A stretch of DNA of 62,543 nt from the NCBI GenBank assembly GCA_036012755.1, contig DASCPX010000228.1, positions 1 to 62,543 on the forward strand, in the 5' to 3' direction. Shown here piece by piece: positions 6,463-57,598 of this stretch (its first letter is position 1; each line of letters starts with the position of its first letter). The notes beneath the pieces were generated by a model that saw nothing but the letters and a program-made list of their open reading frames with translations, had not been told where the DNA came from and made no database searches. Made by a program: the position numbers and the translations under genes. The stretch comes from Myxococcota bacterium (GTDB lineage: Bacteria > Myxococcota_A > UBA796 > CAJQPC01).

Positions 6463-8343
6463 ATGTTCCTGCTGTTCGCCTGCACCGGAGGCTCCGAGCC
6501 GACGCTCCCGGACCCGGGCGCGCTCGAGGCTGGACTGGCACACGCGCGCATACCGGCGCCCGTGGGCATCGGCACCGCGGGCTATGGCGGCTTCGGGGCT
6601 GACCTGCCCGACTCGGACTCGCCCTTTGCCGAGATCTACCCGGCCACGAAGAACCTCCATGGCCACCCCGAGATCCAGGTGGTCGTGATCTCCCGCGGAG
6701 CCCCCTACGAGGCGGTCTTCGTCCGCGTCGACGCCGTCGGCGTCTTCCAGCAGCTCCGCCGCGCCATCGTCCTGCAGGTCGAAGAACAGAGCGGCAGGGA
6801 CATCGACGACAGCTTGCTGATCGGCGCCACCCACACCCACTCGGGACCGGGCCGTGTCATCGACGGCGGTGGGCTCTTCGACCTGATCGCCGACCGCTTC
6901 TTCCCCGAGTACTACGAGCGCCTCCTCGACACCATCGTCGACACGATCCTGGGCGCTTACGACGACCTCGCCCCGGCGCGAATCGGGACCGGCGTCGTGG
7001 AGTGCGCGACCGCTCACTCGGACCGCCGCTGCGAGGACGGCCTCGACTACACCAATGACGCCATTCCCCTGGTCGCCGTCGAGCGCGAGGGCGCGATCGA
7101 CGCCCTGGTGATGGCCTACGCCGTGCACGGCACCGGCCTCGACATCGACCAGCTCACCCTGTCGCAGGACGTCAGCGGTGCGATCGAGGAGGCTGTCGAG
7201 GACGGCTTCGAGGACCCGGTCGAGGTCCTGATGTTCAACTCCTGGGGCGCCGACATGGCCCCGGCGAACCCCGCCGAGGTCGCCACGCAGACCGGCGCCT
7301 CGATGCCCGAGGGCTTCGAGAAGATGGACCGGGCGGGCGCCGCCGTCGCCAGCGCCGTCCACGCAGGACTCGCCGAGCTCGACTGGGAAGAGGAGCCCGA
7401 CATCCGGCTCTCCACCCACAGGCTGCGGATCGACCGCGAGAGCATCGGCTACGAGACCGAGGAGTTCCCCTTCGACTACGGCGGCGTCTACTGCGGCGGT
7501 GAAGAGGACTGCGACCCGGCGACAGAGGTCGATGGCCTCGACCAGGCCTGCATCCCCTTCCCCGAGGAGTTCCCCGCGCCCGACCAGACGGTCATGACGG
7601 TCGGGGTGCTCGGAGGCCACCACGTCGTGACCTTCCCGGGCGAGCCGGGCACCCTGTTGGCCGAGGACGTGATGGACGCCATCGAGGCGGAGACAGAGGC
7701 CGTAGGCAGCCTGATGTTCCTTGGCTACACCCAGGACTACCTCGGCTACTCGGTCCTCGAGGACGACTGGTGGCAGGGTGGCTACGAAGCCAGCGGAGCC
7801 CTGTGGGGACCGCGCCAGGGTGAGTACCTGGCTGACTGCGCCGTCGACATCTTCGCTGCCTGGGCGGCAGGGGCCCCTGCGGGCTTCCGTGAGCCCGACC
7901 CGGTCGAGCCCTTCACCGATCCGCAGTACACCGCCTATGAAGTGGAGTCCGCGCTGGAGATCGGCAGCGTCGTGACCGAGGTGGATGGGAGCTACGGCGT
8001 CGAGGAGATCGTCGTCTTCGCGGTCAACGGGAGCGACCCCTGGCTCGGAGCCCCGCTGGCGACGGTGATCGACGAGGGCGGAGCGCCGGTTTCGCGCAGC
8101 AACAGCGCGGTCCTCGACAGCGATGGCTACGGCGCCTGGGTCGAGCTCTCCGTGGACCCGACCTACGAAGATGAAGACGAGGCCTCCGCGCGCGCCTTCA
8201 CGTGGACCTTCAACTTCCCCGTCCAGCGCCCGACGCCGGGCACCGCCGCCCTCGAGGCTGGGCGCTACAGGGTGTCGGTGGTCATCCCGACCGCAGACGG
8301 AGAGAGCACCGTCCAGAGCGCCGAGTTCGTGGTCTCTCGGTAG
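6463..8343 (+). CDS. Neutral/alkaline ceramidase-like lipoprotein
   Basis: RBS GGAGG; MFLLFAC; ATHTHSGPG, YAVHGT, FPGEP, GYTQDYLGY, GGYEAS motifs. Confidence 0.8.
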   Translation: MFLLFACTGGSEPTLPDPGALEAGLAHARIPAPVGIGTAGYGGFGADLPDSDSPFAEIYPATKNLHGHPEIQVVVISRGAPYEAVFVRVDAVGVFQQLRRAIVLQVEEQSGRDIDDSLLIGATHTHSGPGRVIDGGGLFDLIADRFFPEYYERLLDTIVDTILGAYDDLAPARIGTGVVECATAHSDRRCEDGLDYTNDAIPLVAVEREGAIDALVMAYAVHGTGLDIDQLTLSQDVSGAIEEAVEDGFEDPVEVLMFNSWGADMAPANPAEVATQTGASMPEGFEKMDRAGAAVASAVHAGLAELDWEEEPDIRLSTHRLRIDRESIGYETEEFPFDYGGVYCGGEEDCDPATEVDGLDQACIPFPEEFPAPDQTVMTVGVLGGHHVVTFPGEPGTLLAEDVMDAIEAETEAVGSLMFLGYTQDYLGYSVLEDDWWQGGYEASGALWGPRQGEYLADCAVDIFAAWAAGAPAGFREPDPVEPFTDPQYTAYEVESALEIGSVVTEVDGSYGVEEIVVFAVNGSDPWLGAPLATVIDEGGAPVSRSNSAVLDSDGYGAWVELSVDPTYEDEDEASARAFTWTFNFPVQRPTPGTAALEAGRYRVSVVIPTADGESTVQSAEFVVSR

Positions 8344-8370
8344 ACCCCTCGGCGAAGTCTCGCCGTCCTC

Positions 8371-9777
8371 TCACGGTGGTGGAGGCAGCGCCTCGATGTG
8401 GATGGTGAGGCCCTCGACGACGCCGTCGACTTCTACGGGGTTCTGCTTCGCGGGGCCCATTCCTCCGCTGCCCGAGGCGGTCTCGTACTGGTCCTTACCG
8501 CCCCCGCTCCCGTCGTCGAGGGCGGCGAAGACGAGGTAGCTCCCGCCAGCGGGCAGCTGGATCGTGAAGGTCTGCTCGGCGGTCCCAGAGGGCTCGAAGC
8601 GAATGTCAGCAACCGGTGACATGCCGGGGGAAGGCATGCCGCCCTTCGCGTCGCGCACGTCGAAAGCGGAGACATAGAGCGCCCGCCCGGCGATGACCCC
8701 CGCGGCGTGGGTGATCGTGCCGGAGACATCGACCGTCTGGATGGGAAGGATGTCCTCGACCACGGGGTCGCTGGTAGCGCTCACGCAGCGCATGCCGACA
8801 GCCGAGCCGATGACGAGGTCGTTGAAGCGGTTCGCCGTGCGCATGTTGGTGGAGAAGGTGTTCCACCCACCGCCGCGCATGACGTGGAGCTCGCCGCTTG
8901 CAGGCCCGCCAGGATCGTCGGGCCGTCCCTCCCTGTAGATGGCGGGGTGGTAGGCGTCCCCGACCCACTCCCACACGTTCCCGGCCTGGTGGACGAGGCC
9001 ATAGGGCCCCTCCGTGCCCTCCGCGACCGGGAGCGTGTCCGAGACGCAGAGCCGCGGTGCCCCCGCTCCGATCATCGCGTGGTTGGCGAGCTCACAAGAG
9101 GGAGCATCCCGGCCCCACGGATAGGGGCGGAGGTCGCCAGGATCACACCTGAGAGGGTCGTCGCCGAGCTCGCAGCCGCCACGGGCCGACTTCTCCCACT
9201 CGGCCTCGGTCGGGAGGCGCATGTCTCGGGCGAGGCAGTAGTCGCGAGCCTCCTCCCAGGTGACGCCCTCGGCGGGGTGGCCGGCTCGACCGGCTTCGAC
9301 CTCGCCGGTGGGGCTCATCGATCGCAGATCGCTGCTGCCTGCGCTGCGACCGGTCGAGCGAAGCCAGGATGCGAAGTCTTCGACGGCGATCTCGTGCAGG
9401 TCGATGCAGAACGACGCCGTCTCGACGACGTGGACCGGACCCTCGTCGGCGCCGGCCTGAGACGACACGGAGCCCATCACGAAGGGGCCGGCCGGGACCA
9501 GCGCCATGCCACCGGGACAAGGCGCTGCGGAGGCCACCTGGGGCACCTCCACCGCCAGATCGGCCGACCAGGAGCTCGAGAGATCCTCGGCACCCATAGA
9601 CATTCCTGGCGGCCCCGGGTGTCCTCCGGGTCCAGGCTGTCCAGGCTGTCCAGGCTGTCCAGGCTGTCCAGGCTGTCCAGGACCAGGCTGTCCAGGCGCC
9701 GTGTTGGCTGGCGCCGGCTCCGGCGGCCGAGCTGGGAGCTCGGGCTCGCCGCAGCTCGCGGCAAACAGCAGGATCAC
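8371..9777 (-). CDS. SUMF1/FGE-sulfatase domain lipoprotein with (GQP)n linker
   Basis: FVMGS, RLPTEAEWEKSARG, YPWG, AGNVWEWVGD, RGGGW; GTG start overlaps the upstream stop. Confidence 0.9.
   Translation of the reverse strand: MILLFAASCGEPELPARPPEPAPANTAPGQPGPGQPGQPGQPGQPGQPGPGGHPGPPGMSMGAEDLSSSWSADLAVEVPQVASAAPCPGGMALVPAGPFVMGSVSSQAGADEGPVHVVETASFCIDLHEIAVEDFASWLRSTGRSAGSSDLRSMSPTGEVEAGRAGHPAEGVTWEEARDYCLARDMRLPTEAEWEKSARGGCELGDDPLRCDPGDLRPYPWGRDAPSCELANHAMIGAGAPRLCVSDTLPVAEGTEGPYGLVHQAGNVWEWVGDAYHPAIYREGRPDDPGGPASGELHVMRGGGWNTFSTNMRTANRFNDLVIGSAVGMRCVSATSDPVVEDILPIQTVDVSGTITHAAGVIAGRALYVSAFDVRDAKGGMPSPGMSPVADIRFEPSGTAEQTFTIQLPAGGSYLVFAALDDGSGGGKDQYETASGSGGMGPAKQNPVEVDGVVEGLTIHIEALPPPP
9631..9696. 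repeat. 9-bp tandem repeat encoding (Gly-Gln-Pro)n
   Basis: TCCAGGCTG x5 plus degenerate copies. Confidence 0.9.
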
Positions 9778-11572: not shown

Positions 11573-12124
11573 GTGAAGAAGAAGCTCGCGCTCGGCCTCG
11601 TCGCGGTGCTGGCCTTGCTGGGCGCGCTGACGCTGGACCTCGCGGTGGCACCGGACCCCGAGATGGCCCCTTCGATCCTGGAGGGCGACACCGTCCTGAT
11701 CGGCCCTCCGGGCGAGCTCCGACCTGGGACCGTCGTGGTCGTCGACGACCCCGCGGAGCCAGGGCGAAAGGTCCTTCGACGGGTCATCGCCGTCTCCGGC
11801 GCCGAGGGGCGCTACGACGTGCGACGCCGAGAGATGTTCCGCGGCGGAGACATCGCGATCCTCAACGAGGTCGACCGCTGGCTGGTCCAGGAGCGCACGA
11901 CGGCGCGCCTGGAGCCCAGCATCCGCCTCGACACTCCGGAGGGTCACGTCTACCTCCTGGCCGACAACCGCGACCTCGGCCTGGACTCGCGCTGGTGGGG
12001 TCCGGTCCCCCTCGAGCGCATCGAGGGGCGCGTGCTGCTGCGCTGGGGCTCCTCCGACGCCTGGCGTGGCCCGGTCTCCATTGGAGCCGAGGACGGCCCC
12101 TGGATACCGCCGAGCAAGCAATGA
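11573..12124 (+). CDS. Signal peptidase I (S26)-like protein lacking the catalytic Ser/Lys
   Basis: N-terminal TM; DPEMAPSILEGD (box B), LRRVIAVSG (box D), YLLADNRDLGLDSRWWGPVP (box E). Confidence 0.8.
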   Translation: MKKKLALGLVAVLALLGALTLDLAVAPDPEMAPSILEGDTVLIGPPGELRPGTVVVVDDPAEPGRKVLRRVIAVSGAEGRYDVRRREMFRGGDIAILNEVDRWLVQERTTARLEPSIRLDTPEGHVYLLADNRDLGLDSRWWGPVPLERIEGRVLLRWGSSDAWRGPVSIGAEDGPWIPPSKQ

Positions 12125-13632
12125 CGCGGATGTACCTGCTCCTTGCCTGCACTCCATCCGAGGACACCCTCGATCCCGAGCGTGGCGACACGTCAGGGGA
12201 AGCCCCTCCAGACGCAGTCCTCGCCGCCTTCGAGGACCAGTTGGACGAGCTCGGCGCTCCCGGAGTCGCCGTGGGCATCTGGCAGGACGGTCGCATCGTG
12301 CACGCCTTTGGACTCGGCCGGCGCGGGCCGGAGACCGACGAGGAGGTCGGGCCCGACACGCTCTTCCGCATCGGCTCGGTCACGAAGATGCTCACCGCAG
12401 CGGCGCTGCTCGAACAGGTGGACGCCGGAGCCCTGGACCTGGAGACGCCGCTGTCCGACCTCGTCGACGTCGAGACGATGAGCCCGGAGGAGTACCAGCA
12501 GGTCACGGTCCACCACCTGCTGTCGCACCAGGGGGGGTTCTGGGACCACACGCCCATCGAGGGGACCTCGAACGACGAGCGCCTCGAGAAGTACACCGAG
12601 GGAACCTGGGCTAGCTCGTACTCCCTGCAAATGGTCGAGCCAGGGGCCTTCTGGAACTACAGCAACCCCAACTTCGCCCTCGCCGGACTGGTCATCGAGC
12701 GAGCCGACGGCCAGCGCTACTACCGGGAGGCCCTGCGTGAGGACGTGCTGACCCCCCTGGGCATGGACCGCACGCTGTTCTTGGGCGAGGACGTCATCGC
12801 CGACGGGGACTACGCCACCGGCAAGGCCTACGACTGGACTGGCGGGGGCGCGGACTGGCTCCCGAGCGAGCCCGACAGCTATGACCATGCCTGGTCCCGA
12901 CCAGCGGGCTTCGCCTTCTCCAGCGTCTCGGATCTGCTGCGCTTCGCGAGCTTCCTGATGGAGGAGGAGCGCCTCGTCCAGCCTCATGTGGACCTGCAGG
13001 TCGGCTACCCGGGCTGGTTCAGCTACGGCTACGGCGTGATGGTGTACCGGGGTTTTGGCGGGGTCTCCGGCTTCATCGAAGAGCCGCTGTGGACCCACGG
13101 AGGCGCCATCCCCGGCTTCTCAGCGGAGCTCTTCGTGCTGCCGGAGCGGGACTTCGCCGTCGCTGTCCTCTCCAACGGCGACGGGGCCTACTTCGGAGAC
13201 GCGGTCGCGGTCACCTTCGACGAGCTGGTCGAGGACCTACCCGCTGGGGGAGCCTGGCCCGATGCCGGTACGCGGGACGACATGAGCCGCTACGCCGGGA
13301 CCTACTACGACGCCTGGAACATCGGCGAGGTCATCATCAAGGAGCTCGATGGTTCCTTGCAGATCCTGTGTCCCACGCTCGCGGACTACGGCTACGAGGT
13401 CGACGGAGAGCTGGTCCCGCTCGGGCAGGACAACTTCGTGATGACCTTGGACGGCACCGGCATCACGATCGCGCTGCTGCAGGGACCCGACTTCGACAGC
13501 CAGTACCTGCGACACCGGGCCTTCGTCGCCCACCGCCAGGACGGGGCGAGGTCCCGACCGAGCCCGGAACCGGACGTCGCCGCGATCCTCCGCGCGGAGG
13601 CGTCAGTCCCTCAGAGCCAGCTCCCCGAATAG
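12121..13632 (+). CDS. Serine hydrolase (class C beta-lactamase/AmpC-like) lipoprotein
   Basis: ATGA overlap with the upstream gene; LLLAC; FRIGSVTK (SxxK), YSN, HGGAIPGF. Confidence 0.9.
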   Translation: MTRMYLLLACTPSEDTLDPERGDTSGEAPPDAVLAAFEDQLDELGAPGVAVGIWQDGRIVHAFGLGRRGPETDEEVGPDTLFRIGSVTKMLTAAALLEQVDAGALDLETPLSDLVDVETMSPEEYQQVTVHHLLSHQGGFWDHTPIEGTSNDERLEKYTEGTWASSYSLQMVEPGAFWNYSNPNFALAGLVIERADGQRYYREALREDVLTPLGMDRTLFLGEDVIADGDYATGKAYDWTGGGADWLPSEPDSYDHAWSRPAGFAFSSVSDLLRFASFLMEEERLVQPHVDLQVGYPGWFSYGYGVMVYRGFGGVSGFIEEPLWTHGGAIPGFSAELFVLPERDFAVAVLSNGDGAYFGDAVAVTFDELVEDLPAGGAWPDAGTRDDMSRYAGTYYDAWNIGEVIIKELDGSLQILCPTLADYGYEVDGELVPLGQDNFVMTLDGTGITIALLQGPDFDSQYLRHRAFVAHRQDGARSRPSPEPDVAAILRAEASVPQSQLPE

Positions 13633-15165
13633 ACTGCGTTGGCGCCGTCGATCTCGAGGTCGGCGGAGGGCGTGCCGCTGAGCGGACCCAGGAAGAGGTA
13701 GCTGGCCCCTGCCTGGGAGCCGCCGTCGTCGTTGGTGCTGGCGCCGATGAAGAGGTCGTCGTGGCTGTCCCCGTCGACGTCTCCGATGCCGAGCGCGGAG
13801 ATGCCGAAGCTGTCGCTGGCCGCCTCTCCCTCGAGGAAGGCGTCGGAGTCGTCCTCGAGGATGAAGACGTCCGAGGTCTTCGGGCCGCTGACGAGGTCGG
13901 CGTGACCCTCGTTGTTCGTGTAGCCGCCGTAGCGGGCTCCGATGAGCAGATCCTCTGTCCCGTCGCCGTCGACGTCCCCCGCGCCGTCCACGAAGTGCCC
14001 CGCCCAAGCTCCCTGGCTGGCGCCACCGGAGCCGGCGAAGAGGATATGTCTGCGTCGCCGATGTCGCCGTCGGAGACCGCCGAGAGCCACACATAGGCGG
14101 CCCCGGCCTGGCCTCCCCCCGTGGAGTCCTGGTAGCAGCCGAGCACCAGCTGGTCCGCGCCGTCGCCGGTCCAGTCGTCGAGCACGGCGACCATGCGCCC
14201 GCAGTATTGGTTCTTGTCGTCGCCGGTCACAGCGACGTCTGCGGAGCTGGCGTCGACGGAGCTCACCGGCCCGTAGAAGACCCAGGCGCCGCCTGCGTTC
14301 TTGTCGGGGGTCACGCCATGACGGTTGTCGCCGACGACGATGTCGGTGGTGCCATCACCGTCCAGATCCCCCGTCCGCGCGATGCCACCGAAGCGCTGGA
14401 AGGCGGTGTCGCTGGAGTCGTGCTCCAGCGTGATGTCCGCGTCGCCGTCGTCGCAGTCCTCGCATGCCGGGTGGCCGTCTGCGTCCGCATAGCCGACGGA
14501 GCCATCGCAGTTGTAGTCGTTGGGATCCGTGCAGTCGTCCTCGGCCGCGCCAGGATTGAAGGCCCCGTCCTCGTCGTCGCAGTCCCCGGCTGCGCCCACG
14601 TAGCCCTCTGGGACGAAGCACTGCACGACGCTGTCGGACCCTTCTCCCCAGCCGTCGCCGTCCTCGTCGACGTACCAGGTGGCCTGTCCGCTGACGCTGT
14701 CGTCGTCGTCATCGACGGCCCCGTCGCAGTCGTCATCGATCTCGTTGCAGACCTCTGAGGCGTCGGGGTTCACCTCGGAGTCGGCGTCGTCGCAGTCCCC
14801 GGAGGTGAGCACGTGGCCCTCGACGTTGGGACACGACCAGACGATGTCCTCGCTCCCACCGAAGCCGTCGCAGTCGTCGTTCAGCTGGTTGCAGTGCTCG
14901 ACGGCCCCCGGAAGGCCTCGGCCCGTTCGTCATCGCAGTCCCGGGCGGACTCAACGTAGCTCTCGTCGGGGGCCTGGCACTGGTCGACGGGGGCGCCAGC
15001 GCCATGTCCATCGCCGTCGCCGTCGCGGTACCAGGAGCGCCGCTGCACATCCGGATCGTCGTCGTCGCAGTCGTTCGGGCGGGGCAGGTCGTCCCCGTCG
15101 AGGTCCCAGCGCCCATCGTAGTCCTCTGACGTGATCAGCGAGCATCCGAGCAACAAAGCGAACAT
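13611..15165 (-). pseudogene. Degraded lipoprotein with Cys/Asp metal-binding repeats and FG-GAP repeats
   Basis: MFALLLGC start; DCDD..E.CN..DDDCDG repeats and GDLDGDG..D..VG repeats spread over three frames (shifts near 14907 and 14045) with fused half-repeats; no natural C-terminus. Confidence 0.8.
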
Positions 15166-15213: not shown

Positions 15214-15729
15214 ATGTCTCTGCGCGACGCACTCTTGAAGGCCGGAGCGGTCTCGAAGAAGCGCGTGAAGAAGACCGAGCGCGGCCTCAAGGAGAAGCGC
15301 AGGGCCGAGCAAGGGCAGCGGGACAAGAAGAAGCAGATCAGGGCGCGGGAGCGACAGGAGGCGGAGGCGGCGCGAGCCCAGCGCGAGGCGTCCATGCGCT
15401 CCGCCCGAGCCCAGCGGCGGGACCGCACCGAGAAGGAGGCCAGGGCGCTGCGGACGAGGCACCTGCTGGAGGCCCACCGCATCCAGGTCCGGACCGGCAA
15501 GGGCACGCGCTTCTTCTTCGCCCACGAGGGCGTGGTGAAGCGCCTGATCGTGCCGTGGACCATCGCCCGCGGCCTGCGCGCCGGGGTCTACGCCATCGCA
15601 CTGCTGGAGCGTCCCTACGTCGACGACGAGTACGTCGTGATCCCTGCGGCGACCGCCGAGTACGTCGAGGACGAGGTCCTGTTTCGAAACCTGGAACCCG
15701 GGGACGAAGGATTCACGGACGACTACTGA
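15214..15729 (+). CDS. DUF2058/YaiL-like protein
   Basis: RBS GGAGG; MSLRDALLKAG N-terminus, basic coiled coil, FFF..G.VKRL.V...GLRAG.YAI. Confidence 0.75.
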   Translation: MSLRDALLKAGAVSKKRVKKTERGLKEKRRAEQGQRDKKKQIRARERQEAEAARAQREASMRSARAQRRDRTEKEARALRTRHLLEAHRIQVRTGKGTRFFFAHEGVVKRLIVPWTIARGLRAGVYAIALLERPYVDDEYVVIPAATAEYVEDEVLFRNLEPGDEGFTDDY

Positions 15730-16253
15730 TCCTGCTGGCCTGCGGCGCCGAGCCGCGCACCGGCCCCTGCGCCGACTACGCAGGTCCGGCCTACGAGTTC
15801 TGCATGTCGGAGGAGGTGGGCGAGGACCCCGCCCTGTGTGTGGACGCCGGCGCCTTCGAGGCGGACTGCCGCCTCAGGTGGGTGCGGCGTCACGCCGAGT
15901 CGGACCTCGAGGTGCTCCTGGAGGTCTGCGCGAGCCAGGAGTGCCGCTTCGATGCCCTCGAACACAAGGCCACGGGCGAGCTGCTCACCGACCTCGCGCG
16001 CTGCGACGAGCACCTGGAGATGATGGCCAGCTACTGCCGCGAGCACGCCGCGATCCGCTGGCTCGCCGAGCCGACCGGCGTGGACAGGGTCGTCGTCGCA
16101 GAGGGCTGGCCAGAGGACATCGGGCGAGCCCTCGGCCACCTGCACGCCTGCGCCGGAGGCCCGGCCTGCTCGGAGCTCCCGGAAGGAAAACAGGCGGGCT
16201 GCCGCTCGCTCGTCGCCGAGGTGGAGGCCGACCCGACGATCTGCTCGAGGTAG
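15726..16253 (+). CDS. Cys-rich lipoprotein, hypothetical (probable CTG start)
   Basis: CTG overlapping the upstream TGA gives (M)ILLACGAEP; coding-like frame continues to TAG at 16253. Confidence 0.6.
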   Translation: MILLACGAEPRTGPCADYAGPAYEFCMSEEVGEDPALCVDAGAFEADCRLRWVRRHAESDLEVLLEVCASQECRFDALEHKATGELLTDLARCDEHLEMMASYCREHAAIRWLAEPTGVDRVVVAEGWPEDIGRALGHLHACAGGPACSELPEGKQAGCRSLVAEVEADPTICSR

Positions 16254-18388: not shown

Positions 18389-20134
18389 GTGCGCTGGCCC
18401 AAAGACGGCAAGCCCCACAAGACCAAGGACGGTCTGTCGGAGACCCAGATGCCCAATTCGATGCAGATGCGTGCGCGCCTCGCGCTGGGGGCGGTCCTCA
18501 TCGGGATCATCCCCACTGCTAGCGTGACCGCCCTGGCGATCGCGCTGTCGGACGGCTCGCTGACCGCCACGCTGGTCGGAGTCACTGTTGCCTGGTGCGC
18601 CGTGCTCACCGCCATCGCCTATGCGGCCAGCGGCCGCATCACGGCCCCACTACGCAAGGTGACCGTCGCGGCGCAGCACATCGCCAACGGCGACCTCGAC
18701 CACTCGATCGAGCACCACGGCGACGACGAGGTCGGGGAGCTCACGGACTCCGTGCGCTCGATCCAGGCCTCTGTCCGGCGCCTCAACGACACCGTCGACG
18801 CCATCGTCGAGCCCATGCGCGAGGCCGGCGAGGTGCTCGAGGCCGTCGCCAGGTACGACCTCCGGGTCAAGGTCGAAGGCGCCTACTCCGGCGACCACGC
18901 CCGGATGAAGGAGGCCGTCAACAGCTCCCAGCAGGCCCTGCACGACGTCATCAGCCAGATGACCATCTCCAGCGAGTTCGTCGCCCACGCGGCCGGAGAG
19001 ATCTCCAGCGGAAGCCAGGCCATCGCCGAGGGCGCAACCGTCCAGGCAGCCTCCCTCGAAGAGACGGCGGCCTCCCTCGAGGAGATCAGCGGCATGACCC
19101 GCCAGAACGCCGACTCCACGATGAAGGCCCGAGCGCTGGCCCTGTCGACCAAGGACACGGCCGAGAGCGGCGAAGAGGCCGTCGCAGAGATGGTCGAAGC
19201 GATGGGCAAGATCCGCGCCTCGGCCTCGAACACCTCTCAGATCCTCAAGGACATCAACCAGATCGCCTTCCAGACGAACCTCCTGGCCCTGAACGCGGCG
19301 GTCGAAGCCGCCCGGGCGGGAGACGCCGGGCGGGGCTTCGCCGTGGTCGCCGAAGAGGTCCGCGCCCTGGCGCTGCGCAGCAAGGAAGCGGCGGAGAAGA
19401 CCGAGCTCCTCGTCAGCGAGAGCGTGGGCCTCGCCCAGGAAGGAGAGCAGCTCTCCAAGCGTGTCAACGAGCAGCTCTCCGACATCACCTCGTCGGTCGG
19501 CGAGGTCGCTGGCATCGTCGCCGAGATCGCCTCGGCTTCGGACGAGCAGGCCCGCGGGATCGAGCAGGTCGCCCGGGCGGTCCACCACATGGACCAGGTC
19601 GTCCAGAACGCCGCCGGGGCCTCTGAGGAGAGCTCCAGCGCCGCCGAGGAGGTGCACGCTCGCGCCGCTGAGATGGCCGATGTCGTCCGGCGTTTCAAGC
19701 TCGACAGCGACAACGTAGTGTCCCTGCCGTCGCGAGCGGCCCGCCGTCCGGTGGCGAGGGAGCCCAAGACCCGCGTGGGTGGGCTGCTCCACTACATGTT
19801 GCCCCTGTCGTCGATCAACCCGGCCCGAGCCCGTGAGGCGCCCGGGACCTTCGCCGACACGGGCGTGCCGATGCTCTTCCGAGAGCTCTTCGCCCTTGGG
19901 GCGGTTCGCACGGACCTCGTCATCAAGATCGCAGGCGGCGCCTCGCTCTGCGGCCACATGGAGATGTTCGCCGTCGGCAAGCGGAACCTGCAGGTATTGA
20001 AGAAGATGTTCGAGCAGAACGGCTACCGCGTCAGCGCCCACGACATCGGAGGCTCGCGGTCCCGCACGCTGCGGCTCGGAGTCGGGGACGGCCGCGTCGT
20101 CGTCTCCTCACCGGGAATGGAGGTGGAGCTGTGA
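18389..20134 (+). pseudogene. Methyl-accepting chemotaxis protein fused in frame to N-truncated CheD (alternative start 18449)
   Basis: Two adjacent TMs with no sensor domain, [24 protein letters not shown]; then from about 19760 a CheD body ([29 protein letters not shown]) without the LGSC catalytic segment. Confidence 0.8.
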
Positions 20135-30343: not shown

Positions 30344-31171
30344 TCAGCCCCCCAGCTGGGCGGCTGCCTTGGCGAACTCCTCGGCGCGCTTCTCCTCGGT
30401 CACCTGGCTCGACTTCTCCCGAAGCATCGGCCCCACGGAGGTGTCGCCGAGCTTCGCCAGCGCCCTCGCGGAGAGCACGGCGACGTCGACGTCGGGGTCG
30501 TCGAGGCGGGCGATGAGCGGGTCACGGTCGACCGCCAGCGGGGACTCACCGAGGCCGCGAGCGATCTCCTCTCTGAGCTTCTCGTCATCCATGTTCTCCA
30601 GGCCCGCGTGGACCAGGGCCCGGGTCGACTCGTCGCCCAGCCGGATGAGCGCCCGGTAGCTCGCGTAGCGAGTCTTGTCGTCGGTGTCCTCTGCCCCGGC
30701 GAGCAGGGCGTCCTGCTGGTCGGCCCAGCCACGCTTGCCGATGATGATCGCGGCCTTGCGCCGGACGCCGATGTCCTCGTCGTTGGCGAGCGCGTACCCC
30801 ACGGTCGCGCTGAAGCTCGAGGGCCCGGTCTTCTCGAGGATCACGAGGGCCTTGCTCCGCTGCCCCTTGTCGCTGTCGTTCCGAACGACGTAGTCGCAGA
30901 CCGTGTACAGCTCGTCAGGGCGGATCGCTTCGAGGGCCACCAGCGCCTTCTTGCGCACGGCGACCTCCGGATCGCTCTTGACCAGCTCGATGAGCTTGGG
31001 CGCTGCGTCGACGACTACGCGTCGCTGGATCTCGACCGCGGCATCCACCCGGATGTCACGCTCCGAGCTGTCGAGCGCCTCGACCAGCTCGGCGTTGCTG
31101 GCCGACTTGGCCTTGAACGCGAGCGCCGGGCCGGATGCCAGGGCGAGGAACAGGAACCAGTGCATGTTCAC
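30344..31171 (-). CDS. Exported HEAT-repeat protein
   Basis: RBS GGAGG; Sec signal (ALA-F); repeated D....VR..A..AL units. Confidence 0.85.
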   Translation of the reverse strand: MNMHWFLFLALASGPALAFKAKSASNAELVEALDSSERDIRVDAAVEIQRRVVVDAAPKLIELVKSDPEVAVRKKALVALEAIRPDELYTVCDYVVRNDSDKGQRSKALVILEKTGPSSFSATVGYALANDEDIGVRRKAAIIIGKRGWADQQDALLAGAEDTDDKTRYASYRALIRLGDESTRALVHAGLENMDDEKLREEIARGLGESPLAVDRDPLIARLDDPDVDVAVLSARALAKLGDTSVGPMLREKSSQVTEEKRAEEFAKAAAQLGG

Positions 31172-31220: not shown

Positions 31221-31958
31221 ATGCTCCTGCTCATCGCCTGTACGGCCAAGACCCCACCCGAGCCCGCGCCCCAGACCGCGCCCGAACCCGAGGCCGAAGC
31301 GGTCGCCGCGGGTCCGACGACGACCGAGCGGTGGCCATCGGTGGTCGACCTCGACGGCGAGCCCGTCCTCGCCAGTTGGGACGACGGGGACACGTTCTCG
31401 AGCCCGCGAGAGGACCAGGACCCCATGAGAGCACGCCTCTCCGGCTACAACACCCTGGAGTCCTACGGGCCGGTGCACCGGTGGGGCGACTGGGACGCGG
31501 CGGAGCTCTACCTCCTGAGCAAAGAGGCTGGACAGCTCGCGGGCTCCAAGGTGTGGGAGTGCTACGACACCGGCCACGGCGGCGGCTACGGGCGCTCCCA
31601 GGTGGACTGCCCGGAGCTACGCCAGGAGCTGCTCCGACGTGGCCTCGCCCACAGCTTCGTGATGGATGGCGAGGCCCTCCCTGACGACCTGGCTGCGCAG
31701 CAGGAGGCGATACGCTCCGGGGCCGGGATGTGGGCGCGAGGCACGCCCGAGTGGCTGACGACCAGCATCCACTCAAAGGGCGAAGGCAAGGACCGGACCT
31801 ACAACCGGGTCGTGAGCACCGCCGACGGCCACTCCGAGGAGCGCACGCACGAGGAGACCTACGAGCCCTGCAGCGAGGTCTGCCCGGTGGATTCCTGCAT
31901 GATCTACGTGCCCTACGCCCAGCGCTATGGGGACGACCGAGCCGTGTGCCTTCGCTGA
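31221..31958 (+). CDS. Thermonuclease (SNase-like) lipoprotein
   Basis: MLLLIAC; DGDT, RLSGYNTLE, YGR, ELLRRGLA, QQEA....AGMW. Confidence 0.75.
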   Translation: MLLLIACTAKTPPEPAPQTAPEPEAEAVAAGPTTTERWPSVVDLDGEPVLASWDDGDTFSSPREDQDPMRARLSGYNTLESYGPVHRWGDWDAAELYLLSKEAGQLAGSKVWECYDTGHGGGYGRSQVDCPELRQELLRRGLAHSFVMDGEALPDDLAAQQEAIRSGAGMWARGTPEWLTTSIHSKGEGKDRTYNRVVSTADGHSEERTHEETYEPCSEVCPVDSCMIYVPYAQRYGDDRAVCLR

Positions 31959-37748: not shown

Positions 37749-38279
37749 TCAGTCGGGACGGCAGGCCTCGGCCCGGCGGCGGCGTGCCCTGACGGCTGTC
37801 ACCGCGAGCGTCGTGTCGACGAGCTCCTCGGCCTCCTCCAGGGGGGCCTGCTCGTCCCGGAGCAGCCGCGCGACCTCACGACGATCCACGAGCTGGCGAG
37901 CGCGGAGCTCGACCTCCATCCAGTCCGCCGCCGAACCCGCTTCGTACTCCGACGCCTCCCGGACCCGCGCCGAGGCCGCAGCGGCCCGCCGGCGGTTGCT
38001 CGCGTTCGCGTCGGCGTCGCGGTGGACCTCGCCAGTGCGCATGTCCTCGAGCCCCCCGACGCTGCGTCGGCTGTAGGCGTTCCGACTCGCCACGGCGGCC
38101 TCGCGCCGACCATATGCCTCCTGGAGCTCCGCCCGCGCCGCGGAGAGCTTGGAAGACTCCACGTCCGCAACGCGCTCGTAGTAGGCGACGGTCTCGTACC
38201 AGGCAGCGTCCGCCTCCTGCTCGGCCTGGCTGCACAGGCTCTTCCGGCTCGGCCCACAGGCCAACAGGAGCCAGATCAT
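37749..38279 (-). CDS. Hypothetical helical lipoprotein
   Basis: MIWLLLAC start, ATGA overlap. Confidence 0.65.
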   Translation of the reverse strand: MIWLLLACGPSRKSLCSQAEQEADAAWYETVAYYERVADVESSKLSAARAELQEAYGRREAAVASRNAYSRRSVGGLEDMRTGEVHRDADANASNRRRAAAASARVREASEYEAGSAADWMEVELRARQLVDRREVARLLRDEQAPLEEAEELVDTTLAVTAVRARRRRAEACRPD

Positions 38280-43341: not shown

Positions 43342-45045
43342 ATGATCCTGCTCCTGGGGTGCACGAGCACCACCGCCGTCACGACAGCACACGACGAAAC
43401 CGCGAACCCCGACGACACCGGCGTGCTCGGAGAGCCGGCGGACGCGCTGTCGCCGCTCGGCACGCTCCCTGGACTGAAGCACATCCAGGACCTCGGGCTC
43501 CTGGACGGGGACCGCGTGGTGATGGCCACCTACAGCGGCATCGCTGTCGCCCTCGCCGAGGACCCGGCGAACCCGACCCTCGCCGAGGCCGGCGGTCCGC
43601 CACTGTACTGGGTCGAGGAGGGCAGCGACGCGCTGGCCTCGGGCCGGGAAGCTGGTCTCTACCGCGTCGAGATCAGCGACGAGGGCTTCGAGATCGAAGC
43701 CCGCCTGGACGTCGAGGACGACCTGAATCCCGAGGAGGCCTCGCCCCTCGGAGACGGCGTCCTGTTGGCGGCCCAAGCCTCCGGACTGCTCAGCCTGGAC
43801 TCGAACCTGGTGGAGCTCGACCGCCTCGAAGAATCGGACAACGCCATCGCGGTCGCAGTCGACGGGGACGTGGCCTGGCTGGGTGACAGGGGCCAGGGCC
43901 TGATGGCCGTGGACGTGAGCGACCCGAGCGCGCTGGAGTTGCTGAGCGTGACGCCCCTGTCGGGTTCGATCCAGGACGTGGACATCGACGGAGGCGTCGT
44001 CGTTGTCGGGTCCTCTGGAGAGATCCACGTGCTCGACGGCAGCGATCCCACGGCCCCGGTCCTCCTCTCGTCCATAGACGGCCAGGGCGTCGCCACACGG
44101 GTGGACCTGGAGGGCAGCCGCCTTGCGGTGGCGAACTGGCTGGACCTCAGGCTCTACTCCATGGAGGATCCCGAGCTTCCAGTGCTCATCGCCATCGAGG
44201 ACGCCGCCGAGGCCATCGGCGCAGTGGAGCTCGACGGCGACACGCTGTGGGCGGGCGACTGGAACACCCTGCGGAGCTTCGCGATCGACGTGGAGGCGCG
44301 GAGCCCGGAGATCACGCTGCCGTCGAGCCTGCTGCTCTTCGGCGACGCCCCCGACTCGGAGCTGGTCCAGGTCGGGAACGAGGGCAACATGCGGCTCGTC
44401 GTCGACGACATCGTGTGCGGCGAGGGTCTGCAGGCGAGTCCCACGACTTTCCAGCTGGCGCCTGGCGGCTCGCAGCTCGTGGAGATCCTCGCAGAGATGG
44501 ACGGCAGCGAATGGGAGGGGAGCTGCATCGTCACGAGCAACGACGCGGACGAGGCCAGCGCGAGCATCGCCGTGAGCGTGAACCCAGCCGGACTCGCGCT
44601 GGGTGACCAGGCCCCGGACTGGGAGTTCCCCGATCTCGAAGGCAACGTCCACCGGCTGTCGGACACCGACGGCCAGGTACGCCTCATCACGCTGTTCTCA
44701 TCCTTGTGACCTTCCTGCGCCTCGGAGTTGCCGAGCCTCGAAACGGACGTCTGGCAGGTCTGGCAGGACAAGGGCCTCGTGGCCTACGCGATCAGCAGCA
44801 GCACCATCGGGCCGGAGAACCCGCAGGATCTCGCTGAGTACGTCGAGGGCATGAAGCTGACGATGACCGTGCTCGCCGACTACGACGTCACCGTCTACTA
44901 CGACTACCGGATCAACGACCCCGACGCCTACGCCCCCTACCCACGCGAGTACGTCGTCGACCGGGACGGGACCATCGTCTACATGGACTCCAACATCGAC
45001 GTGGTCGCCCTGAACGCGCTCCTCGAGGAGCTGCTGGGCGACTGA
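43342..45045 (+). CDS. Probable selenoprotein lipoprotein: LVIVD repeats, Ig-like domain, redoxin domain with UxxC (TGA 44707-44709 = Sec)
   Basis: RBS AGGAGG, MILLLGC; GDQAPDWEFPDLEG..RLSD..GQVRLITLFSSL-TGA-PSCASELPSL continues in frame into ORF 44728..45045 (PYPREYVVDRDGTIVY), completing a TlpA/AhpC-TSA fold. Confidence 0.85.
44719..44737 (+). promoter_or_regulatory. Candidate bacterial SECIS hairpin
   Basis: CTCGG-AGTTG-CCGAG stem-loop; the loop starts 16 nt after the UGA and has G at its second position. Confidence 0.55.
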
Positions 45046-49039: not shown

Positions 49040-50374
49040 GTGTTGTCGGTGCTACCCGGTCTGATCTGGTCACTCGGATGCGAGGCGACCGTCGGTAGCA
49101 TCGACGTCAGCGACGACAGCAGCGACTCGGCCAACACGCCCGATGACACCGGCAGGGAAGACGTCCCGGGGGTGGCAGAGGTCCTCCCGGTGCTGGTCAT
49201 CGCGACCTCCGACGACATCGGCAGCGAGAAGGTCGCGGGAACGCTGGAGGTCGTCGAGGTCCACGAAGGAGATCCAGAGGACATCGACGATGCGCCGCGC
49301 AGCCTCGTCACGGACATCGGCATCGAGGTCCACGGTTCATCTTCCCAGGGCTACCCGAAGCTCGGCTACCGCATGGAGACCCGCGACGAAGACGGGGACG
49401 ACGAGAACCACTCGCTCCTTGGGCTGTCCTCTGGCAGCGACTGGGTCCTGCACGCGCCCTACTCGGACAAGACGCTCGTGCGGAACGCGCTCAGCTACGG
49501 CCTGGGCTCGCTCATCTCAGAGGCCTACCAGCCCGGGACGCGCTTCGTCGAGCTGATCCTCAACGACCGCTACCGGGGGGTCTACGTCGTGGTGGAGCGC
49601 ATCCGACGCGGCCGGATCGAGCTCACGGACCCGGAAGAGGACGTCACCGGCGCCTACATCGTGCGCATCGACCAGCACCGCAACGAGGGCTGGAACACGA
49701 CCGTCGGCACACCCATCGACTGGTACCAGCCGCGCTACGAGGACATCACGTCGGCCCAGGACACCTACCTGCGGGGGTGGTTCAACGACTTCGAAGCGGC
49801 GATGTCGAAGGACGACTTCGCCGACACCTACGAAGACTGGATCGTGACCGACGAGTGGATCGACCACTTCCTGGTCAACGAGCTCTCCCACAACATCGAC
49901 GCCTACCGCCTGTCGGCCTACCTCTACAAGGACGCCGAGGCCGACGGCGGCAAGCTCCACGCTGGCCCCCTGTGGGACTTCGACAGGGCCTACGGCAACG
50001 TGAACTACTGCGACTGCTGGTACGCGGAGGGCTGGATCATCGACAGCCTCATCGACTGCGGCGAGGGCTGGCAGTTCCCCTTCTGGTGGAGACGGTTGGA
50101 GCAGGATCCTGCCTACCAGGAGGCAGTGGACTGCCGCTGGGAGGCCCTCCGCGCCGAGCACTTCTCTGATGCCGCCCTCGAAGAACACATCCGAGGCCTC
50201 GTGGTCGAGATCGGCGAGGCCGAAGAGCGCGATCACGACCGGTGGGACGTGATCGGCCAGTACATCGATCCCAACTACTACGTCGGCGACACCTACGAAG
50301 ACGAGATCGACTGGCTCATCGAGTGGACCCACCAGCGGGCAGAGTGGATGGACTCAGAGCTCGTCTGCGACTGA
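49040..50374 (+). CDS. CotH kinase family exported protein
   Basis: RBS GGAGG before GTG; HGSSS..YPK, WVL.APYSDKTLVRN, YRGVY, GPLWDFDRAYG. Confidence 0.88.
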   Translation: MLSVLPGLIWSLGCEATVGSIDVSDDSSDSANTPDDTGREDVPGVAEVLPVLVIATSDDIGSEKVAGTLEVVEVHEGDPEDIDDAPRSLVTDIGIEVHGSSSQGYPKLGYRMETRDEDGDDENHSLLGLSSGSDWVLHAPYSDKTLVRNALSYGLGSLISEAYQPGTRFVELILNDRYRGVYVVVERIRRGRIELTDPEEDVTGAYIVRIDQHRNEGWNTTVGTPIDWYQPRYEDITSAQDTYLRGWFNDFEAAMSKDDFADTYEDWIVTDEWIDHFLVNELSHNIDAYRLSAYLYKDAEADGGKLHAGPLWDFDRAYGNVNYCDCWYAEGWIIDSLIDCGEGWQFPFWWRRLEQDPAYQEAVDCRWEALRAEHFSDAALEEHIRGLVVEIGEAEERDHDRWDVIGQYIDPNYYVGDTYEDEIDWLIEWTHQRAEWMDSELVCD

Positions 50375-50753: not shown

Positions 50754-52319
50754 TCAGTCCCGATACCCGAGCGCCTTCAGCCGAAGATCCTCTTCGTCCT
50801 CTGCCCAGGGTTCGATGGCATCCCCGGCGCCCTTGACGAGGCCCTCGTAGACGAGCCCACCCTGGGCATCGACCAGCCGTATCTCGGGAACGCTGGTCCC
50901 GATCACGCCCAACCGCAGGGTGCAGCCAGGCACGTCGACGTCCATGCGGAAGAGGCGCTCCTCGACCTGCTCCATCCAGCCGCAGGTCCAAGGGGGCTGG
51001 ACGGGGTCGGCGACGACGTGGCCGTCGATCTCCAGCGAGGCGACACCCGTGAGATCAACCGCGCGAGCCCAGGTCGGCGGGGCGGTGCTCGGGCCCGGGT
51101 GGAGATCGCTGGCCGGCAGGGCATCCGCGGCCCTGGCCAGTCGGCGGCGGTCGGCCTCCCGCGCTAGCGGCGTGAGCTCGTCCGGCAGCTCGAACAGGAA
51201 GGCGCCACCTGGCGTGTCGAGGAGCTTGAGGCCACCGAGGACCAGCGCCGAGCGGTGCTCGCTCTCGTAGAGGAGCTGCCCGGCGACGGCCACCCCCGGG
51301 TCCTCGGTGGCGAGGCTCACTCCGACCCAGGCTTCGGGGGCCGGGACGCCGAGGAGCGTGGCGAGGGTGGGCGGGATGTCCACGAGCCTGGCGGGCCGCG
51401 CGTCCTGCCGCGGCTCGATGCCGGGCCCCCCTATCAACAGCGGGACCTCCAGGACCTCCTCCCACAGGGCGTGGCCGTGCTCGAAGCCATCGTGCTCCCA
51501 GAGCTCCTCGCCGTGATCGCTGAAGACGACGACGACGTCCGCGGCCTCCAGCAGCGGCGCCAGCATCTCGAGGCGGAGCGCGACCGTCTCCCGGTAGTGG
51601 CCGCGCAGCGTGTCCGCGTCGTACAGCCCGGCGCGACCCCCGGCGAGATCGTCGAAGCCCTCGTAGGGGAGGTGCGGCCCCATCACGTGCGCGAAGACGA
51701 GGTCCGGACCGTCCTCTGCGAGCCAGCCGAGCGCCTGCTCCACGACGGCGTCGTCCCCGCCGACCACTCGGAAGTGCCGAAAACCGGCGGCGATGCCCCG
51801 ATTGGGCCGCAGGTGGGGGTTGGAGACGACCGCGCGAGGCCTCCACGCCCCCAGGGTCTCGGCGAGGCCCTGGCGCGGCGGCTGGATCGACTGCTCCGGA
51901 CCCAGGGGCCGCTGGAGCCAGCGTCCGGTGAGGACGGCGACCAGCGAGGGGAAGGTCCAGGGGCTCGGGGCCCGCGCGTGGGCGAAGGTCCAGGCCTCCT
52001 CGGCGAAGGCCGACAGCGCCGGCGAGTACTGGAGGTGATCCGCTCGCAGGGTGTCGATCGACAGCAGGAGCACGTCCGGGCCCGCCCCACTGGAGCGCTC
52101 GTCGAGGGCCACGACACGGCAGTCCGGGTCGTCGTACCGGGTGTAGCGGTCGGTGACGGTGAGTCGAGCGCAGCCAGGCGGATCCTGGACGAGCGTGGCG
52201 TCGCCCACCGGAACCCGCTCTCCGGGCTGCACGAGGAAGCCCTCCCCACCGAGGGCTCCCTGGGCGACTCGCGCGGGCACGCTCGGCGGCTCGGCGAGGC
52301 AGGCGAGCATCAGGATCAT
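50754..52319 (-). CDS. Sulfatase-like lipoprotein
   Basis: MILMLAC; LSIDTLRADHL, SPWTFPS, PHLPY, SDHGEE, HGHALWEE, LKALGY. Confidence 0.85.
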   Translation of the reverse strand: MILMLACLAEPPSVPARVAQGALGGEGFLVQPGERVPVGDATLVQDPPGCARLTVTDRYTRYDDPDCRVVALDERSSGAGPDVLLLSIDTLRADHLQYSPALSAFAEEAWTFAHARAPSPWTFPSLVAVLTGRWLQRPLGPEQSIQPPRQGLAETLGAWRPRAVVSNPHLRPNRGIAAGFRHFRVVGGDDAVVEQALGWLAEDGPDLVFAHVMGPHLPYEGFDDLAGGRAGLYDADTLRGHYRETVALRLEMLAPLLEAADVVVVFSDHGEELWEHDGFEHGHALWEEVLEVPLLIGGPGIEPRQDARPARLVDIPPTLATLLGVPAPEAWVGVSLATEDPGVAVAGQLLYESEHRSALVLGGLKLLDTPGGAFLFELPDELTPLAREADRRRLARAADALPASDLHPGPSTAPPTWARAVDLTGVASLEIDGHVVADPVQPPWTCGWMEQVEERLFRMDVDVPGCTLRLGVIGTSVPEIRLVDAQGGLVYEGLVKGAGDAIEPWAEDEEDLRLKALGYRD

Positions 52320-52323: not shown

Positions 52324-52764
52324 CTAGCGACCGTAGAGCTTGCCGCCGGCCTCGCCGTCGCAGCTGTGACAGCCATTGCAGGAGCCGCTCTGGGCAGCGT
52401 CCATCATCATCATCGTGCCCTCGGCGCTCTCCACCTCCACCCGGAGCGGCGGGACGAGCTCCACGCTGCTGGCGAAGTTGCCGGCGGCGTTGCTGCTCAA
52501 CTCCAGCTGCTCGCCAGCCGCGTCCTCGACCCGCACGGTCGCGCCGGGTAGCGGGGCGCCCCCGTCGAGGTCGGTCCAGACGGTGCCGGAGACCGACAGC
52601 GAGAGCTCGCCCTCGCTGTGACAGGACTCGCAGACGGAGCCAGGCAGGGACAGTCCTCCCTCGCACTCGCAGTCGCCGTCTTCGCAGGCCTCGTTGGCGC
52701 TGTTGCAGCCCGGATCCGAGTCGGGTGCCGGATCGCCACAGGCCAGGAGCATGGGCAGGATCAC
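52324..52764 (-). CDS. Small diheme c-type cytochrome lipoprotein with carboxypeptidase-regulatory-like beta domain
   Basis: GTGA overlap; MLLAC; CESCH and CNGCH; SGTVW...GATVRV.D..G...SNAAGNF. Confidence 0.75.
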   Translation of the reverse strand: MILPMLLACGDPAPDSDPGCNSANEACEDGDCECEGGLSLPGSVCESCHSEGELSLSVSGTVWTDLDGGAPLPGATVRVEDAAGEQLELSSNAAGNFASSVELVPPLRVEVESAEGTMMMMDAAQSGSCNGCHSCDGEAGGKLYGR

Positions 52765-54579: not shown

Positions 54580-54587
54580 CCCGGACG

Positions 54588-56373: not shown

Positions 56374-56381
56374 CGGGATAC

Positions 56382-56519
56382 TCAGCCTCCGCAGACCGCG
56401 TTGTCGCCGTCCTGGGTGGCCACGCCAGTGTTGCCGCAGGTCACGGCGCAGGCACCTCCGAGCAGGTCGCAAGCGACCAGGCCAAGCGAGAACGCAGCCA
56501 GGACCATGAGCGTTTTTAT
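56382..56519 (-). pseudogene. Short lipoprotein remnant or mini-lipoprotein
   Basis: RBS AAGGAG then ATA-AAA-ACG-CTC-ATG...: (I)KTLMVLAAFSLGLVAC followed by only 28 residues. Confidence 0.4.
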
Positions 56520-56620
56520 CTCTTCTCCTTGGGACCTCGTCTCGACCACTTGACACCGCCGGGGCCCCTGAACGCGACCCCGATCACCGCCGAGGCGTCG
56601 CGGGGGCCTACTATCTCCGC

Positions 56621-57598
56621 ATGTTGCTGCTCTTGGCTTGTGGACAGGCGGACGATCCGGTCCCCGCCGTGGCACGCTTGGTGGATCGGGTCGGAGAGGA
56701 CGGCTGCGCGGACGACAGCGTGCGCATGGGCTCGCTCTGCGTCGACGCCTGGGAGGCCGAGGTCGTCGGGGAGCTGGGGTCGCCCGACCAGTTCATCGCC
56801 CCCCAACGGAAGACCACCGCGACCGCCCTGAGCAAGGCTGGCGTCGCGCCCTCGATGATCACCTACAGCCAGGCTTGGCGTGCGTGCGAGAACGTCGGCA
56901 AGCGCCTGATCACGACCTCCGAGTGGGAGGACGCCGCCGATGGCGTGGTCGGGCCCGGCGGCAGCGCCTTCCCGTACGGCAGCGAGTTCGATCCGACGGC
57001 CTGCGCCACAACCGACGAGCAGAGCTTCCAACAGTACACGGAGGTCCAGCTCACAGGCTCGAAGCCGGGCTGCGTGAGCGAGTTCGGGGCCTACGATCTC
57101 ATCGGCAACGCCTGGGAGTGGACAGCCTCAGAGGACCGCCTGGACATCGAGGGGTGGCTCGCTGCCAACCCGAGCTACAGCGTCGTCGATGGCCTCCTGG
57201 TCGGGCCGCCGGCCATCGCGCTGGCGGCTGACATCGAGCCCGCGCAGCTCGACCAGGACGAGCAGGGGCGGCTCTACGCCGCGCCCTCGCAGCTCAACAA
57301 GCGACAGGCATTCGGCCGCCGGGGCTACCTGGCCGTCAACCAGCGTGACAAGGTCCACCAGCTGCTGCCCTTCGTGCTGGAGCAGCCAGATGTGGAGGGA
57401 CCCGCCTACATCCGGATCCTGGCAGAAGCCGACGGACTGCCCGTCCCGATCAAGCGCGGCTGCGGCTACTACTCGGGCCAGCCATCGACCTGCACGACGA
57501 GCCGGTCGAACCTCGCCGGACACTTCCACGACTTCCGAGGCACCATCGGCTTCCGCTGCGTCCTGGACCTCTCCGATCAGGCCGCTCAGCGTCCCTGA
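56621..57598 (+). CDS. SUMF1/FGE-sulfatase domain lipoprotein
   Basis: MLLLLAC; CVDAWEA, GKRL.T.SEWE.A, FPYG, YDLIGNAWEW, GFRC. Confidence 0.85.
   Translation: MLLLLACGQADDPVPAVARLVDRVGEDGCADDSVRMGSLCVDAWEAEVVGELGSPDQFIAPQRKTTATALSKAGVAPSMITYSQAWRACENVGKRLITTSEWEDAADGVVGPGGSAFPYGSEFDPTACATTDEQSFQQYTEVQLTGSKPGCVSEFGAYDLIGNAWEWTASEDRLDIEGWLAANPSYSVVDGLLVGPPAIALAADIEPAQLDQDEQGRLYAAPSQLNKRQAFGRRGYLAVNQRDKVHQLLPFVLEQPDVEGPAYIRILAEADGLPVPIKRGCGYYSGQPSTCTTSRSNLAGHFHDFRGTIGFRCVLDLSDQAAQRP

Follow-up and report, generated by a model that had tools for sequence, protein, structure and literature searches.

Very short, uncharged putative lipoprotein signals throughout the genome of a Myxococcota bacterium

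Short leaders in the window

The DNA analysed here, referred to as the window, is one whole contig (DASCPX010000228.1; 62,543 nucleotides) of the 6.73-Mb genome of a Myxococcota bacterium assigned to UBA796 (assembly GCA_036012755.1; 68% G+C, 96% complete). The 16S rRNA was not assembled in this genome, and the nearest Atlas clusters of one window protein are mostly from Myxococcota. Ten genes of the window encode proteins with a very short hydrophobic leader ending in Cys at residue 7, 9, 8, 6, 7, 8, 7, 7, 9 and 7, in order of position, and none has Asp, Glu, Lys or Arg ahead of the Cys. A preliminary description of this sequence had pointed out these ten leaders, and all were found where it had placed them. 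As set out below, they belong to a class that extends through the genome and probably acts as lipoprotein signals.

The first leader is that of a ceramidase-like protein (6463–8343, + strand; MFLLFAC, Cys7), whose start is preceded by GGAG/GAGG and whose orthologues have longer lipoprotein signals. Two proteins contain an FGE-sulfatase domain. One (8371–9777, − strand) starts at a GTG that overlaps the preceding stop by 4 nt and reads (M)ILLFAASC (Cys9); the other (56621–57598, + strand; MLLLLAC, Cys7) has a TAnnnT hexamer at −12. Neither gene has an in-frame ATG, GTG, TTG or CTG upstream, and the same is true of the gene for an LVIVD-repeat protein (43342–44709, + strand; MILLLGC, Cys7), which has GGAG ahead of its start and an in-frame stop five codons upstream. 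A 94-residue acidic protein (14881–15165, − strand; MFALLLGC, Cys8) has TAnnnT at −13. For a Cys-rich protein (15726–16253, + strand; (M)ILLAC, Cys6) the proposed start codon is a CTG, deduced from its 4-nt overlap with the upstream TGA. An SNase-like nuclease (31221–31958, + strand; MLLLIAC, Cys7) is preceded by GGAG/GAGG, and a protein with no assigned family (37749–38279, − strand; MIWLLLAC, Cys8) starts in a 4-nt overlap. The last two genes are adjacent: a sulfatase (50754–52319, − strand; MILMLAC, Cys7), which starts 4 nt after the end of the preceding gene, and a protein bearing a CxxCH motif (52324–52764, − strand; (M)ILPMLLAC, Cys9), which starts at GTG and has both GGAG/GAGG upstream and a 4-nt overlap. 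Four of the ten proteins gave no Pfam match.

Every one of the ten starts is thus accompanied by GGAG/GAGG 4–14 nt upstream, by TAnnnT at −12 or −13, by a 4-nt stop/start overlap or by an adjacent upstream stop, which bears out the earlier remark that several of them are pinned. Five of the genes have an upstream start that would place the Cys at residues 14–40, namely those beginning at 6463 (CTG, 17 codons), 31221 (ATG, 19 codons), 38279 (GTG, 15 codons), 52319 (ATG, 19 codons; CTG, 26 codons) and 52764 (CTG, 14 codons). The alternative starts of the genes at 38279, 52319 and 52764 fall within the preceding gene. The upstream ATG of the gene at 31221 falls on the divergent gene's start and would place Glu directly ahead of the hydrophobic run. 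A look for RNA support over 56400–58900 returned no entry and speaks neither for nor against the starts there.

A genome-wide class of short leaders

Genes were called throughout the genome with our own dicodon gene caller, which is blind to Cys. It gave 6,066 genes; the analysis used the 5,612 of at least 80 residues whose 5′ end is closed. Among them, Cys occurs at residues 7, 8, 9 and 10 in 199, 312, 239 and 178 proteins, compared with about 60–105 at each of residues 11–44; Trp, His, Tyr, Asn and Met show no comparable peak at residues 7–10 in the same set. The Cys peak was retained (59, 121, 86 and 68, versus about 20–35) among the 1,927 genes called at their first possible start. The histogram of first Cys positions proposed in the preliminary description therefore reveals a trait much wider than the window.

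A short-lipobox rule was then applied, requiring the first Cys at residues 5–12, preceded by Ala, Gly or Ser and by a hydrophobic leader without Asp or Glu. It accepts 760 of the 5,612 called starts (13.5%, about one gene in seven). Only 54 of 21,952 internal Met residues satisfy the rule (0.25%), and about 14 chance members are therefore expected among the starts. In the 760 members the Cys lies at residues 6–12, most often at 8, short of the canonical length. Lys or Arg precedes it in 18 members, compared with 131 of 185 normal-length lipobox genes, so that a basic n-region is generally lacking. The rule undercounts the class, since 27 of those 185 hide a pinned short start. In 1,014 unfiltered genes with the first Cys at residues 6–11, the residue before the Cys is Ala in 54%, Gly in 13% and Ser in 11%, and Leu is the commonest residue at −3. 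The hydrophobic run is strong and extends over about 4–9 residues only; per residue, the short leaders are the more hydrophobic (Kyte–Doolittle value 2.7 at Cys7–8, versus 2.15), and leader lengths form a continuum between short and normal. No twin-arginine motif was found in the first 45 residues of any of the 760 members, and a Tat signal is accordingly absent there.

Start signals peak at the short starts. TAnnnT at −12 precedes 10.4% of members starting with ATG and 18.8% of those starting with GTG, compared with 0.1% of internal ATG codons; counted at −12 and −13 together, the hexamer is found in 20.4% of the short class, 5.4% of normal lipoprotein genes and 7.5% of other genes. Its position suggests that many of these mRNAs may be leaderless. 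GGAG peaks at −9/−10 in the short class, and 185 of the 760 members overlap the preceding stop. In all, 630 members have at least one such feature pinning the start.

Cargo, paralogues and orthologues

The mature proteins of the short class resemble those of normal lipoproteins and differ from other soluble proteins in composition (Asp 11.2 and 11.7%, Lys 1.2 and 1.5%, Arg 4.1 and 3.8% in short and normal lipoproteins respectively, versus Asp 6.8%, Lys 2.5% and Arg 8.4%). Net charge after the Cys is −2.3 in both lipoprotein classes, as in an acidic tether. Transmembrane helices are present in 11 of the 760 members, and a P-loop in three, versus 207 of 3,765 other proteins. The short class thus has soluble domains of extracytoplasmic type behind a polar tether. 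Pfam was searched with the first 380 residues of 100 of the 136 members from the 20 densest 20-kb stretches, a biased sample. A family was assigned to 43 of them, among them SBP_bac_5, L,D-transpeptidase, amidase, cytochrome c7, subtilase, sulfatases, CotH, MopE repeats and FG-GAP. Within the window, the domains named in the preliminary description were confirmed for the sulfatase (start at 52319) and for neighbouring CotH proteins by Pfam; the protein at 31221 is nuclease-like, and the CxxCH motif of 52764 is visible in its sequence.

Short and normal leaders replace one another among related proteins. For 202 short-class proteins the best colinear paralogue was itself short in 127 cases and a normal lipoprotein in 20, and among 45 normal lipoproteins the best paralogue belongs to the short class in 25. 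The ceramidase-like protein at 6463 has orthologues in 19 of 60 relatives searched, about 13 of them with a readable N-terminus. All readable orthologues have the lipobox Cys at the same place, behind leaders that range from Cys10–12 to normal signals bearing Lys or Arg; examples of these leaders are MIPFFTLLSC, MLLVLAFLAAC and MRIAPLTFFFLIASAC.

Leaders without a lipobox

A further 425 soluble proteins outside the short-lipobox rule start with an uncharged hydrophobic run, some of them being lipoproteins that the rule missed. In these 425, A-x-A peaks at residues 10–11 (13.9 and 17.4%, versus <2% in other genes). The periplasmic proteins BamD and LolA (both copies) begin with uncharged leaders 12–18 residues long. 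BamD was tried as a test lipoprotein and dropped: in most of 30 genomes its leader is of the signal peptidase I type and has no lipobox, a lipobox being present in genomes G008 and G026. The Pal of two genera has an odd lipobox ending in A-T-C, with Thr at −1.

Distribution among relatives

The exact motif M-h5-A-C occurs 42 times in this genome, 34 of them at called starts. Within the order, 40 of 120 genomes have at least 10 occurrences, the maximum being 103, and none of 215 genomes outside it has more than four; related genomes in these counts are not independent. Genomes with at least 10 motifs are distributed unevenly over the families of the order: 21 of 24 in family f7, 9 of 21 in f1, 6 of 16 in f6, 2 of 2 in f4, 1 of 25 in f3, 1 of 22 in f5 and 0 of 10 in f2. 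A 10-residue A-x-A pattern is spread over the lineages in the same way, with 15 of 35 genomes inside the order and 1 of 40 outside. A scan of all genomes returned at least 121 loci and gives no distribution, because true starts are mixed with internal helices in it. Stretches of 40–80 kb from each of 16 relatives were also analysed with our gene caller. Two genomes outside the order gave no short and 16 normal lipoprotein signals in 103 genes. Inside the order, G005 gave 12 short and 5 normal signals and G119 5 and 2, and most genomes with low motif counts gave 0–3 short ones. The trait is therefore real, genome-wide and lineage-restricted: it is abundant inside one order only, and patchily there.

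Export and lipidation machinery

The ordinary route is fully encoded in this genome, with one SecY, one SecA, Ffh, three signal peptidase I proteins, five Lgt, two LspA, Lnt and two LolA. Two lspA and two lgt genes form a tandem lspA-lspA-lgt-lgt run on contig C59 (100000–102600). Lgt copies number mostly 2–6 across the order. Three differences in machinery were considered as causes and rejected: Lgt copy number (G112 has four Lgt and 103 motifs, G020 and G027 six Lgt and no motifs), a lost signal recognition particle (SRP; its M-domain is present in 5 of 5 genomes tested, this one included) and an extra SecA (single copy in 5 of 5 genomes). No second SecY-like gene was found with two profiles among the 5,612 called proteins. 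Contig C43 (68496–69935) encodes a 479-residue membrane protein in which a SecD P1 head accompanies roughly five helices at the N-terminus. Such a second SecD P1 head was seen in two of five genomes, one of them outside the order, and was not found in G005, G112 and G047; as far as tested, it is not needed for the trait.

SecY positions were read by alignment to E. coli SecY, and a tree was made by a quick method. At the place of Ile187, in the pore ring, all 29 copies from the order carry Ala or Ser, and all 28 from elsewhere in the class and phylum carry Ile or Met. This genome shows no change at the other five positions of what we take to be the full pore ring (82, 86, 191, 278 and 408). 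Thr replaces Phe192 in 26 of the 29 copies. Close to the TM4/TM5 hairpin the order typically also has Ser in place of E. coli Thr168 and Cys in place of Met169. One SecY copy of G063, which has Ile and groups with another family of the class, was left out of these counts; G063 has two SecY genes and 8% contamination, and the copy left out is likely to stem from contamination of the bin. Genomes rich in the motif are spread over several clades of the SecY tree.

According to the part of the literature available to us, Ile187 is a member of the pore ring (PMC2171872), and prl alleles map to the ring and let shortened signals through (PMC3164448). The exchange of Ile187 for Ala or Ser is a non-conservative change of this type, and because prl changes in the ring admit shortened signals it may be permissive here. 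As in prl alleles of SecY/Sec61, a smaller or polar residue replaces a pore-ring Ile alongside signals that would be defective elsewhere (PMC3164448, PMC2171872, as far as their available text goes). The differences are that the change is natural, order-wide and at position 187; its prl effect is putative. Several observations weigh against the proposal. The prlA sites in the list available from PMC2171872 are 191, 278, 282, 408 and 69, and do not include 187; the change goes back to a single event at the root of the order and is shared by genomes of the order with almost no short signals; and among 138 broad SecY representatives that were read, of 150, 19 have Ala or Ser at the 187 column, some of these 19 probably being from this order. 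That the change matters as a permissive background, and is no sufficient cause, is thus a tentative suggestion, which we hold to be somewhat less probable than its opposite.

Comparison with known signals

Canonical Sec/signal peptidase I signals are tripartite, with n-, h- and c-regions. The corresponding leaders here likewise have a hydrophobic run followed by A-x-A, and differ in the A-x-A peak at residues 10–11 and in having no charged n-region. Rules of the PROSITE type demand a basic n-region and a Cys at residue 15 or later, and would overlook most of the envelope proteome of this lineage, hydrolases included. Canonical lipoprotein signals, in the available text of PMC8689077, have 16–26 residues and a positively charged N-terminal part. 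The leaders described here share with the Sec/signal peptidase II signal of the E. coli Lpp type a hydrophobic stretch, here of about 4–9 residues only, a small residue before the Cys, a tether and cargo of exported type, and Lgt, LspA, Lnt and LolA are encoded; they differ in having 5–11 residues before the Cys (most often 7), in lacking Lys and Arg in 742 of 760 cases and in having mostly Leu at −2. By sequence, then, they resemble a Sec signal and yet fail two defining features of the canonical form, length and the basic n-region.

The nearest remark in print that we found, in the accessible part of PMC13616975, is that type II signals of myxobacterial metallo-β-lactamases are considerably shorter than that of NDM-1. 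These too are shortened lipoprotein signals of Myxococcota; they concern one enzyme family, in Cystobacterineae, and that text states no length, loss of the n-region or genome-wide class. The main text, as available, of a 2026 preprint on Myxococcota that names UBA796 contains neither 'signal peptide' nor 'lipoprotein' (10.64898/2026.07.10.737566), and PMC8082313, as far as its text was accessible, offers general background only. We found no description of the trait in the literature searched, which left subscription journals and bioRxiv supplements outside its scope.

Interpretation

We propose that Met, four to nine uncharged Leu-rich residues and [A/G/S]-Cys constitute lipoprotein signals that are handled by the ordinary Sec/Lgt/LspA/Lnt route, and assign this a probability of about 0.7. 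A relaxed general Sec route is favoured over a separate lipoprotein pathway because the ordinary route is complete, short and normal leaders swap, lengths are continuous and non-lipoprotein signals are likewise shortened. Mechanistically, a short and very hydrophobic stretch could enter the lateral gate of SecY without an n-region, with the acidic tether behind the Cys helping to fix orientation. The peptide would cross part of the bilayer only, and the Cys would be brought to Lgt and LspA, which act within the membrane. With least assurance, Ile187 to Ala/Ser (and Phe192 mostly to Thr) might act as a natural, order-wide prlA allele admitting such signals, after which several lineages might have lost n-regions gene by gene through a later ATG or GTG. 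More speculatively, retention of the N-formyl group would leave the N-terminus uncharged; SRP binding can block deformylation (PMC5454389, in the text available), and formyl-Met might in this way keep it neutral.

The proposal has points against it. The strict lipobox [LV][ASTVI][GAS]C, with Ile also allowed at −3, is present in just 156 of the 760 members, because position −2 is mostly Leu; 3 of the 43 members with a Pfam family are false positives (RpiB, a carbamoyltransferase and a penicillin-binding protein with a Cys-rich N-terminus); Pal keeps a normal signal with Lys or Arg wherever its N-terminus is readable in the 30 genomes; and myxobacterial type II signals longer than these were not lipidated in E. 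coli (PMC13616975, accessible part). Furthermore, all starts rest on our own gene caller, 130 of the 760 members are without any start pin, and 175 have an upstream ATG, GTG or TTG that would put the Cys at residues 14–40.

The preliminary description had inferred a non-canonical route of export or acylation and had suggested a search of Lgt, LspA, SecA and SecY for unusual features. The leaders do fall outside the canonical form, in length as in charge, and SecY differs at Ile187, but the machinery is the full ordinary set and a separate route was not borne out. A dedicated route could consist of one Lgt or LspA paralogue, SRP/YidC or an accessory part of the translocon. The multiplicity of Lgt, LspA and signal peptidase I, with four of the seven Lgt and LspA genes in one run, would suit it, as would the coexistence of short and normal classes, with Pal staying normal, and the higher hydrophobicity of the short leaders. 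However, Lgt number is an order-wide feature that does not track motif count, the two richest genomes tested yielded no second SecD-P1-head protein, and leader lengths are continuous. We regard a dedicated route as unlikely.

Less probable still is that the leader is kept as a short membrane anchor, acylated or not, without cleavage by LspA. The Cys would sit deeper in the membrane than usual, and an anchor has been raised for the shorter myxobacterial signals that stay unlipidated in E. coli (PMC13616975, accessible part). Against this, the small residue before the Cys and the A-x-A of the non-lipoprotein class are both retained, and six or seven residues would probably make a poor permanent anchor.

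It is highly improbable that normal signals would be restored by true starts further upstream, obscured by the use of rare start codons, by gene-calling mistakes or by errors of assembly. Our caller can favour late starts, and 376 of the 760 members have an upstream start giving Cys14–40 once CTG, ATT, ATC and ATA are allowed. However, 422 members have no in-frame upstream ATG, GTG or TTG, 295 have none when CTG is added and 240 have none even with ATT, ATC and ATA; 206 have an in-frame stop within eight codons. The codons upstream of short starts are no more hydrophobic than those upstream of other genes, the short start is where promoter, ribosome-binding-site and overlap signals are most frequent, and the same caller found only normal signals in the two genomes outside the order. 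A canonical-looking leader could be obtained by extension for only 13–23 of the 760. Cytoplasmic proteins with the Cys acylated there, as in eukaryotic palmitoylation, are a scarcely credible alternative. Its one formal argument is that a helix of the leader's length could not span the membrane; against it, peptidoglycan enzymes, a solute-binding protein and c-type cytochromes are among the cargo, and homologues bear normal signals.

Returning to handling by the ordinary route, a wider version of it holds that the order has a permissive SecY together with a class of charge-free signals of 6–10 residues, capped by formylmethionine and forming a fifth of the proteome in several lineages, which span part of the membrane and suffice for Sec targeting, Lgt and both signal peptidases. 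This version is possible, and we think it doubtful as a whole. If it were true, bacterial export signals could be roughly half as long as the minimum now accepted, and the n-region would be dispensable. The minimal needs of a Sec signal are an old question, mostly approached through engineered mutants. This single genome offers more than 1,000 natural uncharged leaders of about half the usual length. Longer versions on the same proteins of relatives serve as controls, and SecY contributes one candidate residue.

Other genes of the window

A further short-leader member is a hydrolase with the serine β-lactamase fold (12130–13632, + strand; MYLLLAC), for which an ATG three codons upstream would give Cys10 and one Arg. 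Directly upstream of it lies a short signal peptidase I paralogue (11573–12124, + strand), one of the three in the genome and a candidate only as regards the trait. Pfam and the survey of starts identified three other proteins with uncharged leaders: a ceramidase-like paralogue (4480–6351, + strand) with the intermediate leader (M)TFAALLPLMAC (Cys12), a CotH protein of uncertain start (49049–50374, + strand; Cys11–14) and a HEAT-repeat protein (30344–31165, − strand) with the predicted signal peptidase I-type leader MHWFLFLALASGPALA. The two ceramidase-like lipoproteins stand in tandem (4480–8343), with uncharged leaders of unlike length (Cys12 and Cys7). The start of the contig (3–95) presumably represents the tail of an IS3-type transposase reading frame, which it resembles. 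A methyl-accepting chemotaxis protein with a fused C-terminal CheD domain is encoded at 18389–20134, in a cluster with cheA-like and cheW-like genes.

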